A stretch of 64,000 nucleotides of DNA, taken from Verrucomicrobiales bacterium (GTDB lineage: Bacteria; Verrucomicrobiota; Verrucomicrobiia; Verrucomicrobiales; Verrucomicrobiaceae). The stretch lies in contig JAYVIO010000332.1 in NCBI GenBank assembly GCA_043770175.1, positions 2,213-66,212 of the forward strand, given 5' to 3'. This document shows, piece after piece, positions 21,088-38,789 of this stretch (its first letter is position 1; every line of letters begins with the position of its first letter). Under the pieces are notes generated by a model. That model did no database searches. It was not told the origin of the DNA and was given only the letters and a program-made list of their open reading frames with translations. The translations under genes and the position numbers were made by a program.

Positions 21088-22272
21088 TTAGTCGAGGATG
21101 GTGGCGACACGGCCAGCACCGACGGTCTTGCCGCCCTCGCGGATGGCGAAGCGGATGGTCTTTTCCATGGCGATCGGGGTGATCAGCTCGACTTCGATCG
21201 AGACGTTGTCACCAGGCATCACCATTTCAACACCTTCAGGAAGCTTCACGCTGCCGGTCACGTCCGTGGTGCGGAAGTAGAACTGCGGGCGGTAGTTGTT
21301 GAAGAACGGCGTGTGGCGGCCGCCTTCATCCTTGGAAAGCACATACACCTCGGCGGTGAACTTCTTATGAGGAGTCACAGAGCCGGGCTTGGCGATGACC
21401 TGACCGCGCTCGATGTCGGTCTTCTTCGTACCACGAAGGAGGAGGCCGACGTTGTCGCCCGCACGACCTTCGTCGAGCAGCTTGCGGAACATTTCGATGT
21501 CGGTGACGGTGGTCTTGGCGGTCGGGCGGATGCCGATGATTTCGACTTCGCCCATCTTCTTGATGATGCCACGCTCGATACGACCGGTGCAGACGGTACC
21601 ACGACCTTCGATGGCGAACACGTCTTCCACAGGCATGAGGAAGTCTTTGTCGATCGGGCGCTCTGGCAGCGGGATGTAGCTGTCCACGGCGTCCATGAGC
21701 TTGAGGATGTTGGCTTCATGCACAGGATCGCCTTCGAGTGCCTTGAGCGCGGAACCCTTCACGATCGGGATTTCGTCACCTGGGAAGTCATACTTGGAAA
21801 GGAGGTCGCGCACTTCCATCTCGACGAGGTCGAGAAGTTCGGCGTCGTCCACCATGTCCACTTTGTTCATGAACACCACGAGGGCTGGCACACCGACCTG
21901 ACGGGCGAGCAGGATGTGCTCACGGGTCTGGGGCATTGGGCCGTCAGCGGCGGAAACCACAAGAATGCCACCGTCCATCTGGGCGGCACCGGTGATCATG
22001 TTCTTCACATAGTCAGCGTGTCCGGGACAATCGACGTGCGCATAGTGGCGCTTCTCGGTTTCATACTCCACGTGAGCCGTGTTGATGGTGATGCCGCGCT
22101 CTTTTTCTTCAGGAGCCGCGTCGATCTGATCATAAGCCTTCGCCTGGGCGAAGCCCTTCTTCGAAAGGACGGTCGTGATTGCTGCGGTGAGGGTGGTCTT
22201 GCCGTGGTCAACGTGGCCGATCGTGCCGATGTTGACGTGCGGCTTGTTGCGTTGGAATGCTTCTTTGGCCAT
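21088..22272 (-). CDS. tuf: Elongation factor Tu
   Basis: [24 protein letters not shown]; 394 aa from the ATG at 22272. Confidence 0.99.
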
Positions 22273-22347
22273 GGGTGGAGTTAGTTGAGGGGGTGCGCTT
22301 GGGAATGGTTCGTTTGTCGTGTTTCGAAGATCCCCACAGTTCGCCAC

Positions 22348-22422
22348 TGGAGCTGTTAGAGGGACTTGAACCCTCGACCTCGTCCTTACCAAGGACGTGC
22401 TCTACCACTGAGCTATAACAGC
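22348..22422 (-). tRNA. tRNA-Thr (GGT)
   Basis: 75 nt GCTGTTA...TAACAGCT-CCA, anticodon loop CTTGGTAAG. Confidence 0.97.
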
Positions 22423-22545
22423 AAACCGGCGGCAGTCTCGTGAGAGACCTCCTCCTCTTTCGACAATAAAACCGGGGAATGCAAATCTCTCAGACAGATG
22501 TCTGAAGACAGTACGCCCCGGCTTTTTTACCGAAAAAGTGGCGCG

Positions 22546-22573
22546 AAAGTAGGACGCTCGGCATCTCTGTCAA
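22546..22573 (-). promoter_or_regulatory. Sigma70 promoter of the tRNA-Thr–tuf operon
   Basis: Minus strand TTGACA-N16-TACTTT followed by a GC-rich discriminator CGCGCC. Confidence 0.65.
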
Positions 22574-22719
22574 AGATTATTTCCAATCTTTCCGAAAGAC
22601 CCAAAAGCACTCCTGCGTGGCACTCATAGCCCCCCCTCGCCCTGCTACAGCAACATTTTAGGCTTGGCTTGGCGGCGGCGGCTTCATAACCTCACGACGC
22701 AATCACTTCGCCACATATC

Positions 22720-36644: not shown

Positions 36645-36833
36645 CCCGGCTCATTTTCAACCAGAGCGGACTCATTCAGTCTGAACATGAGATCATCCTG
36701 ATCTGGAATGAATCCAAATGAGCTAAAAATGAACTCATTCACTGCCAGAATGAATTCATTTCCGGCACACATGAGTTCATTGCCAGCGTGGATGAATTGA
36801 CTGGAGATCGGGATGATCTGCCACCAGCGCCGC
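36645..36833. repeat. Phased 21-nt degenerate repeat array with ATGAnnTCAT palindromic core (9 units)
   Basis: ATGA at 36687, 36708, 36729, 36750, 36771, 36792 and 36813; in-phase TCAT at 36651, 36672, 36693, 36735, 36756 and 36777. Confidence 0.85.
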
Positions 36834-36984
36834 AGCGGCCCAGCTAGCGCAGAAATGAGCGGATGACCACGCGGAATGGATTCTGTCACGCCGCATGAAA
36901 AGTGTTGAACGCCGCGTATCTGCCCGCGTCAAAGTGAGCAAGGCTGTGCCACACGGTGCGGCTGAAACAACCGCTGTTCCTGCT

Positions 36985-37701
36985 ATGGCACGCTTTGATG
37001 ACCCCTCTGTGCGCTTCGACGCACCGGGGATTTTTTTTGACCTGCCGGAACCAGGGGCGGCACCAAGAACCAAAAGTATGTCCAAGCCAAAACTCAATCT
37101 GCAAGGGGTCGATCCCCTGTCCAAGGTGCAACTGGTGAATGACATCGTTACCCAGATGACGGGCAACGCGAATTTCACCACGCCCACCCCCACGCTGGCT
37201 GCGCTCACCACCAAGAGTGACGCGCTGTCGGCTGTCATCAGCCAGATCGCCCTCACGGAACAGCAGCTCGAACAGCACAACGTCACGCAGGACACCGTCG
37301 TCACGGAGCTGGATGCGTTGCTCACCGCGCTGATGGGCTATGTGGAAAGCGCCAGCGGTGGCGAGGAGGCCAAAATCCTCTCCGCCGGCATGGGCGTGCG
37401 TGGCAAACCCACGCCACCCAGCCCGATGCCACAGGTGACGGGCCTGGAGGCCAAAGCGGGTGACGATGCAGGAGTGATCCTGCTGCGTCACGGTGCCGTG
37501 AAGGGTGCCAAGGTGTATGAGCGCCAGCGCAGTCCTGATCCGTTCACCAACGCAAGCTGGGTGAATCTGGATGCGAGCACCAAGGCCAGCAGCACTGTGA
37601 CGGACCTGCCGAGTGCAACGCGCTGCTGGTTCCGCGTGCGTGCCGTGGGTGCCAAAGGCCCCGGCCCGTGGAGTGATCCCGCCATCAAGACGGTGCCGTG
37701 A
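36985..37701 (+). CDS. Helical N-domain + C-terminal fibronectin type III domain protein (no signal peptide)
   Basis: C-terminal PQVTGL...WFRVRAVGAKGPGPWSDP is a typical Fn3 ending; start uncertain (36985 MARFDD or 37078 MSKPKL). Confidence 0.75.
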   Translation: MARFDDPSVRFDAPGIFFDLPEPGAAPRTKSMSKPKLNLQGVDPLSKVQLVNDIVTQMTGNANFTTPTPTLAALTTKSDALSAVISQIALTEQQLEQHNVTQDTVVTELDALLTALMGYVESASGGEEAKILSAGMGVRGKPTPPSPMPQVTGLEAKAGDDAGVILLRHGAVKGAKVYERQRSPDPFTNASWVNLDASTKASSTVTDLPSATRCWFRVRAVGAKGPGPWSDPAIKTVP

Positions 37702-37727: not shown

Positions 37728-37860
37728 GTTGGCGATGGTTGACATCGCTGAAGGGCGCGGCCAGCCCAGCAGTGCTGCGCACCGCTTTGCAGGCGAGCGC
37801 CGTTGGCAGTGGTTTCAATCCACTGCCAACCACCGTCAACAACAGTCAACCACCATCAAC
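37728..37860. repeat. Structured intergenic element: 11-bp hairpin plus 10-nt CAAC-phased repeats and their inverse
   Basis: gttggcagtgg/ccactgccaac stem (37802-37830); CAAC at 37827, 37837, 37847 and 37857; GTTG at 37728 and 37738. Confidence 0.7.
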
Positions 37861-37871
37861 TTTTCATCGCC

Positions 37872-38789
37872 ATGCCCTACGACCCTATGTTTCCGCTCAC
37901 CAATGCCGCGCTGGTTTCAGCACAGTTCCGCACGCAATTTGCCGCTTTGTTTGATCTCATTCAAAGCATCCCCGTCGGGCCGCCCGGACAAAACGGCAGC
38001 GATGGCACCAGCGTCACCGGCGCGGTGATCGACAACACCACCACGCTCAATCCCGGCAACCCGGCGGAAGCCAGCGTGAGCTGGGATGGGGCGAACGTGC
38101 GTTTCACGTTTGGCATCCCACGCGGACAGGACGGCGTGAGCAGCCCGCCCATCACGAGTTTCATCATCGATGGCGTGAACACCCTGAACCCCGGCGACAA
38201 TGCCACGGTGCAGACCAGTTTTGATGGTGCCAATGTGCGGCTGCTGTTTGGCATTCCGCGTGGGAATGACGGCACGAATGGCAGCAACGGCAACGATGGC
38301 GGCCAAGGCCCGCCGTTCACCAACTTCATCGTCGATGGCGTCAACATGCTGAACCCGACTGATCCCGCGACGGTGCAGACGAACTTCGATGGCAACGCCG
38401 TGCGGATGATCTTCAACCTGCCGCGTGGTTTTACCGGCAACGATGGTGGCACGGGTGCGCAAGGCGGACCGGGGCCGCAGGGGCCGCCGTTTGCGAACGC
38501 GGTGGTGGATGGCGTCCTCACGCTACCCGCCGGTGAGAACGCGACGGTGCAGACGAACTTTGATGGCAGCAATGTGCGCTTTCAGTTCGGCATTCCGCGC
38601 GGCAATGACGGCGGCAGCGGTCCGCAAGGCCAGCCGGGCGAAGTGACGAACGCGCAGCTCAACAGCGCGATCAGCGGCACAAGCAACAACAGCAACGGCG
38701 TGAGCACGCTGGACACAGCCTTCACCGATCCCGATGCGGAATCGTTGCGTCAGGCGTTCAACGCGCTGGTGCTGGCGCTGCGGCGGTGA
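37872..38789 (+). CDS. Collagen-like/tail-fibre-like repeat protein (305 aa, no signal peptide)
   Basis: Four repeats of ~38 aa ending in (I/L)PRG, separated by short Gly-X-Y runs (GPPGQNGSDG, GAQGGPGPQGPP); helical C-terminus. Confidence 0.8.
   Translation: MPYDPMFPLTNAALVSAQFRTQFAALFDLIQSIPVGPPGQNGSDGTSVTGAVIDNTTTLNPGNPAEASVSWDGANVRFTFGIPRGQDGVSSPPITSFIIDGVNTLNPGDNATVQTSFDGANVRLLFGIPRGNDGTNGSNGNDGGQGPPFTNFIVDGVNMLNPTDPATVQTNFDGNAVRMIFNLPRGFTGNDGGTGAQGGPGPQGPPFANAVVDGVLTLPAGENATVQTNFDGSNVRFQFGIPRGNDGGSGPQGQPGEVTNAQLNSAISGTSNNSNGVSTLDTAFTDPDAESLRQAFNALVLALRR

Follow-up and report, generated by a model that had tools for sequence, protein, structure and literature searches.

A 21-nt phased palindrome array upstream of an Fn3-family gene: a cassette found sporadically in Verrucomicrobiota, Planctomycetota and other phyla, with a candidate role as a row of protein-binding sites

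Short sites in tandem are a feature of several well-described systems. CRISPR arrays consist of ~23-50-nt repeats separated by unique spacers of like length, and are accompanied by a leader and usually by cas genes. Partition centromeres include parC, which is bound by ParR, and F-plasmid sopC, which comprises 12 units of 43 bp, each containing a palindrome; the gene for the cognate NTPase (ParA/ParM/TubZ) and an adaptor gene lie in the same operon. Plasmid iterons usually occur in 3-7 copies, together with a rep gene, an AT-rich unwinding region and DnaA boxes. Among regulatory arrays, tandem ARG boxes at 21-bp centre spacing are bound by ArgR, and phased sites are also known for BvgA, for OmpR/PhoB and in sigma-54 enhancers, the last having a bEBP gene in the vicinity and, downstream of the sites, a promoter of the -24/-12 type (TGGCAC-N5-TTGC). 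In the type III toxin-antitoxin systems (ToxIN, CptIN, TenpIN), 34-45-nt repeats forming RNA pseudoknots are followed by a terminator and an endoribonuclease gene, the promoter lying upstream of the repeats and the terminator hairpin between the repeats and the gene (PMC3401426).

The window analysed here is a 64,000-nt stretch of a Verrucomicrobiales contig, in which an array of short palindromes precedes a gene encoding a protein with a fibronectin type III (Fn3) domain. The features of this region, from left to right, are the following:

36551-36889, minus strand: ORF P0001, 112 aa with heptads, an artefact of the repeat and not a gene
36645-36833, no strand assigned: phased array of nine 21-nt units
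36687-36780, no strand assigned: central block of the array, with four exact palindromic cores and a near-core at 36708-36717, from exact matches and inverted repeats
36905-36933, plus strand: ECF/sigma-E-like promoter motif TTGAAC-N16-CGTCAAA, from motif match and orthologue conservation
36934-36984, plus strand: leader, presumed 5' UTR, highly conserved, containing a small hairpin (GTGCC-ACAC-GGTGC) and then CTGAAAC
36985-37701, plus strand: Fn3-family gene, 238 aa, with a helical N-domain and a C-terminal Fn3 domain
37803-38789, plus strand: collagen-like or tail-fibre-like gene, 3' of the Fn3 gene here and in ~10 other loci

The first-pass annotation of this DNA had described an exact 21-nt periodicity with a conserved palindromic core, perfect at 36750, and variable spacers, and this description was borne out. 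Nine 21-nt rows can be laid out in the frame set by the perfect palindrome ATGAATTCAT (36750-36759), each consisting of a 9-10-nt core, ATGAnnTCA(T), and an unconserved 11-12-nt spacer, the spacers being mutually unrelated. Four of the cores match ATGAnnTCAT exactly (36687-36696, 36729-36738, 36750-36759 and 36771-36780), at spacings of 42, 21 and 21 nt, and the remaining five units are degenerate: the left-edge units at 36645 and 36666 have the right half CTCAT only, and those at 36708, 36792 and 36813 the left half ATGA only. The earlier figure of nine units is a fair count of the rows, yet the full sites number only four or five, the rest being half-sites. A repeat search of the array gave spacings of 21, 42, 63 and 84 nt and an overall dyad symmetry, which inverted-repeat analysis centres at 36754/36755. 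The pattern ATGAnnTCAT occurs six times in the window, compared with 0.88 expected, a count reached in none of 100 shuffles; in the 6.06-Mb assembly it occurs 223 times, and nowhere but in the array do two or more matches fall within 70 nt. The array is richer in AT than the flanking DNA. It was not reported by Tandem Repeats Finder run on the window, because its 11-12-nt spacers are unrelated and the units share the core only. With a core of 10 nt, a spacer of 11 nt and a period of 21 nt, no Rfam match here and no cas-like neighbours, it is also, as had been stated from the start, not a CRISPR array.

The minus frame across the array was correctly described as open and reading as heptads (ORF 36551-36889), with a small heptad-repeat protein as one alternative, and it is likewise open in the orthologous locus L073. 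The window was compared with two orthologues, L073 (96% identical, with an SMC gene downstream as here) and L080 (95% identical, from a metagenome), in both of which the array register is kept. The question posed at the outset was whether conservation follows DNA palindromy or codon positions, and it tracks the motif: between the window and L073, five of 72 sites differ at unit positions 0-8 (ATGAnnTCA), compared with 41 of 96 at positions 9-20, and among the three orthologues 55/72 core positions (76%) are invariant vs 36/96 (38%) in the spacer (Fisher p = 5e-7), while the differences between the window and L073, counted by codon position in the minus ORF, show an even spread (13/17/16). In an orthologue, the reading frame of both P0001 and P0002, on the minus strand, is changed by 1-nt indels just left of the array. 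No homologue of ORF 36551-36889 was found in 60 related genomes, stop codons close all six frames in 19 of 50 homologous arrays, and in one clade (L041/L137) the period is 22 nt. The heptad-protein reading, almost certainly wrong for this ORF, is refuted for the array class by these comparisons. The core-focused conservation, the codon-blind substitutions and the frame-breaking indels together argue that the array is non-coding, and by this comparative evidence it is a real element under selection. DNA and ORF searches in the 60 relatives recovered no homologue. A second minus-strand ORF in this region, 36355-36675, has a signal-peptide-like sequence (MSRGKRPLHQLWKSIAAVLPMAVAAALTASS). The possibility that it represents an overlooked start of a gene was rejected, its frame being lost in an orthologue; it overlaps the start of the 887-aa gene to the left and is probably spurious. 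The 23-32-nt DNA matches to its region in the 60 relatives correspond to a transmembrane segment of RND (AcrB-type) transporters, and are chance matches.

The orthologues also indicate to which gene the array belongs. Homology among the window, L073 and L080 starts at ~36665 and continues rightward through the array, the leader and the Fn3 gene, while the genes of the left flanks are mutually unrelated: the window encodes an 887-aa fibre-like protein there, L073 a different protein of 401 aa, and L080 has three further genes. The array had been taken to lie between, and to be shared by, two divergent operons; with synteny stopping at its left edge and unrelated left flanks in three loci, this placement was not upheld. 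Because homology begins at the array left edge, the array can be assigned to the plus-strand Fn3 gene, and in L080 the array and the Fn3 gene are retained with different genes on both sides. By these alignments, the array left edge is a synteny breakpoint, and the array may mark a point of cargo insertion. The left flank of the window is a fibre/polymorphic-toxin-like operon (breakpoint ~36486-36665), and that of L080 includes a gene with an aspartyl-protease domain and one with a GT9 glycosyltransferase domain; searches of Pfam, PHROGs and NCBIfam gave no match for the left-flank genes. The island is accordingly redrawn with the array as the edge of a conserved Fn3-collagen-SMC block and variable cargo alongside. 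The SMC gene downstream in the window is present in L073 and is not conserved in other loci, and the minimal cassette does not include the collagen-like gene.

A search for 21-nt arrays upstream of Fn3 homologues in other genomes, proposed as a check in the first-pass annotation, was strongly positive. Upstream regions of family members, each of 200 nt or more, were available from 43 metagenomic loci, and a free autocorrelation search (lags of 8-49 nt) gave 21 or 42 nt as the strongest lag in 39 of the 43. Among genomes of the phylum the family is sporadic (5/401) and multi-copy, with three copies in the window genome and five in another, and nine of the 11 phylum loci show their best periodicity at 21 or 42 nt, on the upstream side of the gene. 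The number of units in the arrays of the family ranges from 5 to 22, and the distance from the array end to the start codon is ~30-390 nt. Their motifs are locus-specific, differing even among the five copies within one genome. Palindromic stems of at least 7 bp are present in ~17 of 50 consensus units vs ~2 expected, and in some arrays inverted units alternate, giving a 42-nt super-period. The GC content is 0.48 in the arrays compared with 0.61 in the gene, and no consistent strand skew was found across the arrays. Indels between near-identical loci are exactly 21 or 42 nt, a VNTR-like polymorphism in unit number in which the helical phase is always preserved. Two pairs of loci, L113 with L114 and L121 with L122, encode identical Fn3 proteins, and their arrays are distinguished by a single indel of 42 or 21 nt.

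The Fn3 gene is the only gene always present at these loci; the other recurrent neighbour is the small collagen-like gene downstream (~10 loci), and the remaining neighbours are unrelated housekeeping or defence-type genes. The cassette, as defined by these sequence comparisons, consists of the array, a ~150-nt leader and the Fn3-family gene, and occurs sporadically in Verrucomicrobiota, Planctomycetota and other phyla. Full-text literature searches yielded no earlier account of such a cassette, which is widespread and, it appears, so far undescribed. The second copy in the window genome, on contig C128 (~22270-22580, locus L069), is one of these nine and has a 13-unit 21-nt array with a motif unlike that of the window (TGTTTTGGAATnAGGAnnTCC), located at -632..-318 before an Fn3-family gene (C128:22899-23495) whose product is 30% identical; at the third copy (C433:50908-51630, locus L067) only a weak periodic GC-rich region is seen.

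A contrasting approach, starting from the DNA pattern, was a scan for three phased cores in 185,579 species genomes (one per species), which yielded 33 loci, mostly in Verrucomicrobiota, Planctomycetota and Bacteroidota. Four of the 33 have an Fn3 homologue directly downstream: L036 (Akkermansia), L041 (Verrucomicrobiaceae), and L044 and L052 (Planctomycetota). The others are near-perfect 21-nt minisatellites by unrelated genes; they may be unrelated to the cassette, some of them perhaps chance matches among many 21-nt tandem repeats. Minisatellites containing ATGAnnTCAT, with no Fn3 gene in the DNA examined, include L047:4923-5069 (a Methanosarcinales MAG), L032/L061 (one 'Kiruna' bin), L039, L046 and L059. 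One minisatellite locus lies upstream of an archaeal threonyl-tRNA synthetase gene, and several are located at contig ends, where they probably break assemblies.

The size, phasing and number of the sites resemble those of plasmid iterons, lambda-type origin repeats and sopC/parC, and the synteny breakpoint with its three unrelated left flanks, together with the polymorphic unit number, could be taken as signs of recombination. The array might then be an iteron or centromere, relict or active, belonging to a mobile element that has integrated, or else a hot spot of recombination at which variable cassettes are captured. This is highly improbable: no Rep domains were found among the neighbours in the window and ~60 loci, and no Rep, Par, integrase or transposase gene in the ~60 loci; no cognate NTPase or adaptor genes flank any locus; the loci lie in Mb-size chromosomal contigs (0.95 and 1.4 Mb); a search of viral contigs for the Fn3 family found none; and the array is bound up with one non-replicative protein family. 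The iteron and recombination-array labels attached to the array in its first description likewise lack support, no Rep, Par or recombinase gene being nearby.

The 238-aa product of the Fn3 gene was modelled by AlphaFold with a pLDDT of 88 for the whole protein and 94 for the N-domain. From the N-terminus, the models show a disordered stretch in which FD/YD motifs occur three times, then MSKPKLNLQGV in extended form, a helix of 15 residues, the loop TGNANFxTPxP, which is the family's most conserved loop, a helix of 54 residues and the Fn3 domain. The C-terminal domain is a recognisable Fn3 domain, with a PF00041 match in 37 of 44 family members, Foldseek probability 1.0 to many Fn3 chains, and profile matches to the Fn3 domains of titin and RPTP. 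Whole-protein fold searches returned Fn3 only; the N-domain alone gave nothing significant against PDB folds (best E = 1.5), and no match in Pfam, PHROGs or NCBIfam. Searching with the N-terminal domain recovered at least 644 clusters at 50% identity, almost uniformly of 205-240 aa, which points to a large family of fixed architecture, annotated at source only as "fibronectin type III domain-containing" or hypothetical. Residues 1-31 (36985-37080) form the disordered extension with its three spaced FD/YD/WD motifs (FDDP..RFD..FFD), and a conserved internal Met (37078, MSKPKLNLQ...) corresponds to the start of ~207-aa family members, which suggests either that translation yields two isoforms or that a short linear motif mediates an interaction.

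The segment K-P-K-L-N-L-Q, encoded at 37084-37104, is the candidate reader of the array; the x residues of K-L-x-L-x are N38 and Q40 when numbered on the long form. Ribbon-helix-helix (RHH) proteins read DNA with a strand of alternating basic/hydrophobic pattern, and the RHH domain consists of an N-terminal beta-strand, helix A, a short turn and helix B, and forms a dimer. The K-V-K-L-x-L-x alternation followed by a helix would fit such a domain. In the monomer model, however, the loop comprises 11 residues and the second helix 54, no Pfam RHH family matched the N-domain even at E = 10, and neither did any solved RHH structure. The likeness to an RHH strand is drawn as a functional analogy only, and not as membership of that family.

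Conservation upstream of the gene points to a promoter located between it and the array. Strong conservation among the three orthologues sets in sharply at TTGAAC (36905) and reaches the ATG. Extracytoplasmic function (ECF) promoters have a -35 element (G)GAAC and a -10 element CGT(C)/TCAAA, 16-17 nt apart, and TTGAAC-N16-CGTCAAA at 36905-36933 conforms to this consensus, with three positions of the 16-nt spacer varying among the orthologues. The motif is also present 78-131 nt upstream of the ATG in L073, L080, L075, L082, L076, L086 and L108. Across 51 leaders, ECF-like motifs number 11 in sense and three in antisense orientation, compared with 2.1 in shuffles, and they are absent from many clades. 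The sequence at 36905-36933 is a putative ECF-type promoter of the Fn3 gene, with a predicted transcription start at about 36938-36941 and the array ~70-260 nt upstream of it in the window. An ECF sigma factor fused to a ~350-aa C-terminal extension is encoded at L099:591-2201, with equivalents in L100 and L104, in each case just upstream of the array and in the same orientation, which fits the ECF-like motif in the clade of the window. A scan of the leaders for sigma-54 promoters (GG/GC fixed) gave one match in sense and one in antisense orientation, so that none was recognised, and no bEBP gene was noticed at the loci. The gene itself most likely starts at 36985 (MARFDDP...) rather than at 36895, since all five differences within 36895-36984 are non-synonymous in the 36895 frame; its homologues are ~237 aa.

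This arrangement bears on whether the array acts as RNA, with a repeat transcript that binds or neutralises the protein, as in type III toxin-antitoxin systems, or that serves as a scaffold. Repeats, a hairpin-bearing leader, a protein gene and co-variation between repeats and protein make up a ToxIN-like layout (PMC3401426), and the array region folds better than shuffles (z = -3.8 and -4.9), as would be expected of any palindrome array. However, mismatches in the palindromes show neither G-U preference nor compensation: the non-Watson-Crick pairs in consensus palindromes are G-T 140, A-C 106 and other 312, a spectrum that looks like unconstrained mutation and not like RNA-helix tolerance. 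Strand skews are inconsistent across the arrays, and the uncompensated single half-sites at the array edges suit protein-DNA binding and not hairpins. Both the conservation in the window and the promoter-like motif begin downstream of the array, no terminator was found between the array and the ATG, and the protein, which combines a helical hairpin with Fn3, is no endoribonuclease of the ToxN/AbiQ type. With the array upstream of the likely promoter, a DNA-level element is favoured over an RNA resembling a type III antitoxin, and an RNA function is considered very unlikely.

If the array is instead bound as DNA by the Fn3 protein, motif and protein would be expected to change together. Where two proteins are 84-90% identical but their array motifs are not the same, most of the protein differences fall within the first ~60 residues. 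In the clade L110-L121 (80-90% identity), array motif classes were set beforehand from the DNA alone, and pair with protein segments as follows:

Class I: DNA motif CATGGTC..., protein segment LLS/LLN
Class II: DNA motif GTCCGCAAGCTTGCGGAC, protein segment DLR
Class III: DNA motif CTACTAAACT..GTTGTAG, protein segment DLF
Class IV: DNA motif ACGA.GTTTC.TAG, protein segment ELD/ELN

The classes coincide with the x residues of K-V-K-L-x-L-x, which rank first and second of 79 variable columns (z = 3.9 for column 38; mean z of 1.6 for the strand block), in a comparison based on 9-10 loci and five classes. By contrast, no association is seen for the N-terminal extension, whose 17 variable columns have a mean z of -0.2, although the extension is closer to the array on the DNA than is the K-V-K-L-x-L-x segment, so that simple linkage is an unlikely cause of the co-variation. 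In the comparisons made, the array motif co-varies with two residues of the Fn3 protein.

A similar correspondence is found for the motif of the window. All five ATGAnnTCAT arrays, found by the DNA pattern alone, are accompanied by a protein with K-L-x-L-Q (KLNLQ for the window type, KLSLQ in L036, KLGLQ in L044 and L052, and KLELQ in L041/L137), a sequence present in none of ~28 other strand types, while the closer relatives of the window protein (~55% identity) have H or R at the Q position and other motifs. The converse prediction, that Q at the key position implies ATGAnnTCAT, came true at L137, partly at L134 (GTCAnTCA), and failed at L135 (AGGAAAnnnTTTCCT). Because L134 and L135 bear Q and have other arrays, one residue does not make a full code. 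Proteins with K-L-D-L-(K/R), in L086, L108, L107, L110 and L116, go with arrays of TCCG...CGGA-type palindromes (AAATCCGTTCG, TCCGAnnTCGGA, GTCCGCAAGCTTGCGGAC), a possible second residue-base rule.

These observations bear on the other alternative of the first-pass annotation, a cooperative array with all sites on one DNA face. The protein-binding part of that proposal is supported throughout by the comparisons, with the conserved motif, the kept two-turn period and the 21- or 42-nt indels; only its iteron and recombination labels lack support. The preferred reading is that the array is a row of binding sites on one face of the helix, probably read by the Fn3-family product as dimers, and this reading is given roughly an even chance. 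Dyad-symmetric sites two helical turns (21 bp) apart would all face one side of the helix, and Fn3-family dimers would read the half-sites ATGA/TCAT through K-x-K-L-x-L-x (KPKLNLQ here). The dimers would then align cooperatively along the array, upstream of the ECF-sigma-type promoter of the Fn3 gene, leading to autoregulation, to a fixed protein-DNA platform, or to both. It is by inference from the sequences compared here that the array is regarded as bound by a protein, that the Fn3 protein is named as the binder, that the promoter is placed and that expression may be affected. Locus-specific motifs within one genome make a single host factor unlikely, and imply that the specificity determinant should be encoded in cis. 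A point against the Fn3 protein as binder is that its N-domain has no recognisable DNA-binding fold.

Three rival readings may be ranked by falling probability: binding by another regulator, a function as RNA, and a part in replication (iteron), partition (centromere) or recombination. In the first of these, the array would be bound by a dedicated regulator, either an XRE-type HTH protein, its gene lying in cis in some clades and at another genomic position in others, or an ECF-linked factor, and the Fn3 gene would merely be regulated. HTH dimers typically bind palindromes of 10-18 bp, and the want of a known DNA-binding fold in the Fn3 protein speaks for such a binder, as do the ECF sigma genes upstream in L099, L100 and L104. 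Moreover, at L041:951-1283 (+) and L137:1141-1461 (+), where the arrays are ATGAnnTCAT with a 22-nt period, array and Fn3 gene are separated by an XRE-type HTH gene (product ~106-110 aa), which in this clade is an obvious candidate for the binder. However, there is no HTH_3 gene on the contig of the window and no homologue of the L041 regulator in its genome, and L080 retains the array and the Fn3 gene amid different neighbours on both sides. Differing motifs within one genome would require an unlinked regulator for each copy, and the localised co-variation with the N-terminal segment of the Fn3 protein would be left unexplained. A separate regulator is on balance somewhat unlikely.

An extension of the preferred reading, binding by Fn3 dimers, is that the dimers, through a DNA-reading module not recognised before (the K-x-K-L-x-L-x strand with the helical hairpin), polymerise over the 5-22 same-face sites, so that their Fn3 domains stand out from the chromosome as a regular protein brush, a speculative proposal that is rated as unlikely. 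Such a brush would label one fixed chromosomal position, which here is the edge of an exchangeable toxin/fibre island, and could serve regulation, recruitment of a partner (e.g. the collagen-like protein) or cassette exchange. In that case the module would be a new fold for DNA binding in which two residues make up a simple recognition code, and the brush a new chromosomal landmark common to PVC, FCB and Acidobacteriota lineages. If the Fn3 proteins do read their arrays, hundreds of uncharacterised members (at least 644 clusters) would be sequence-specific binders of DNA arrays that lack a known DNA-binding domain and come with arrays of their own. The cassettes would then provide natural orthogonal protein-operator pairs, possibly following a simple recognition code, and an undescribed cis-regulatory or architectural element in groups where transcriptional control is poorly known (Verrucomicrobiota, Planctomycetota). 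They would also account for many false 'CRISPR-like' or minisatellite calls and for breaks in metagenome assemblies.

Compared with the systems described above, the cassette shares with parC and sopC some ten or more tandem, helically phased, often palindromic and locus-specific sites, whose sequence co-evolves with a small binding protein encoded in cis, and, with parC, the position of the array directly upstream of a regulated operon. Unlike these centromeres, it has no ParA/ParM/TubZ NTPase and no plasmid context, occurring at chromosomal loci, and its putative binder is a helical hairpin plus Fn3 rather than the ribbon-helix-helix or HTH fold of partition systems. Iterons of theta plasmids and lambdoid origin repeats are alike in their 17-22-bp units on a 21-22-bp grid, matched to a protein encoded in cis, but the cassette lacks the rep gene, the AT-rich unwinding region and the DnaA boxes. 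Type III toxin-antitoxin systems likewise have a tandem array right upstream of one protein gene, in a compact, mobile, two-part unit whose repeat sequence changes along with the protein (PMC3401426); the cassette differs in its 21-nt strand-symmetric units, the lack of an RNA pairing signal and of a terminator, its promoter-like motif downstream of the array, and its Fn3 protein. With activator and repressor arrays it shares dimer sites in whole-turn phase upstream of a promoter, suited to cooperative binding on one face. There, 2-6 sites serve a regulator of global or pathway scope, with one motif per genome, whereas the cassette has 5-22 sites, no sigma-54 promoter, and a private motif for each gene copy.
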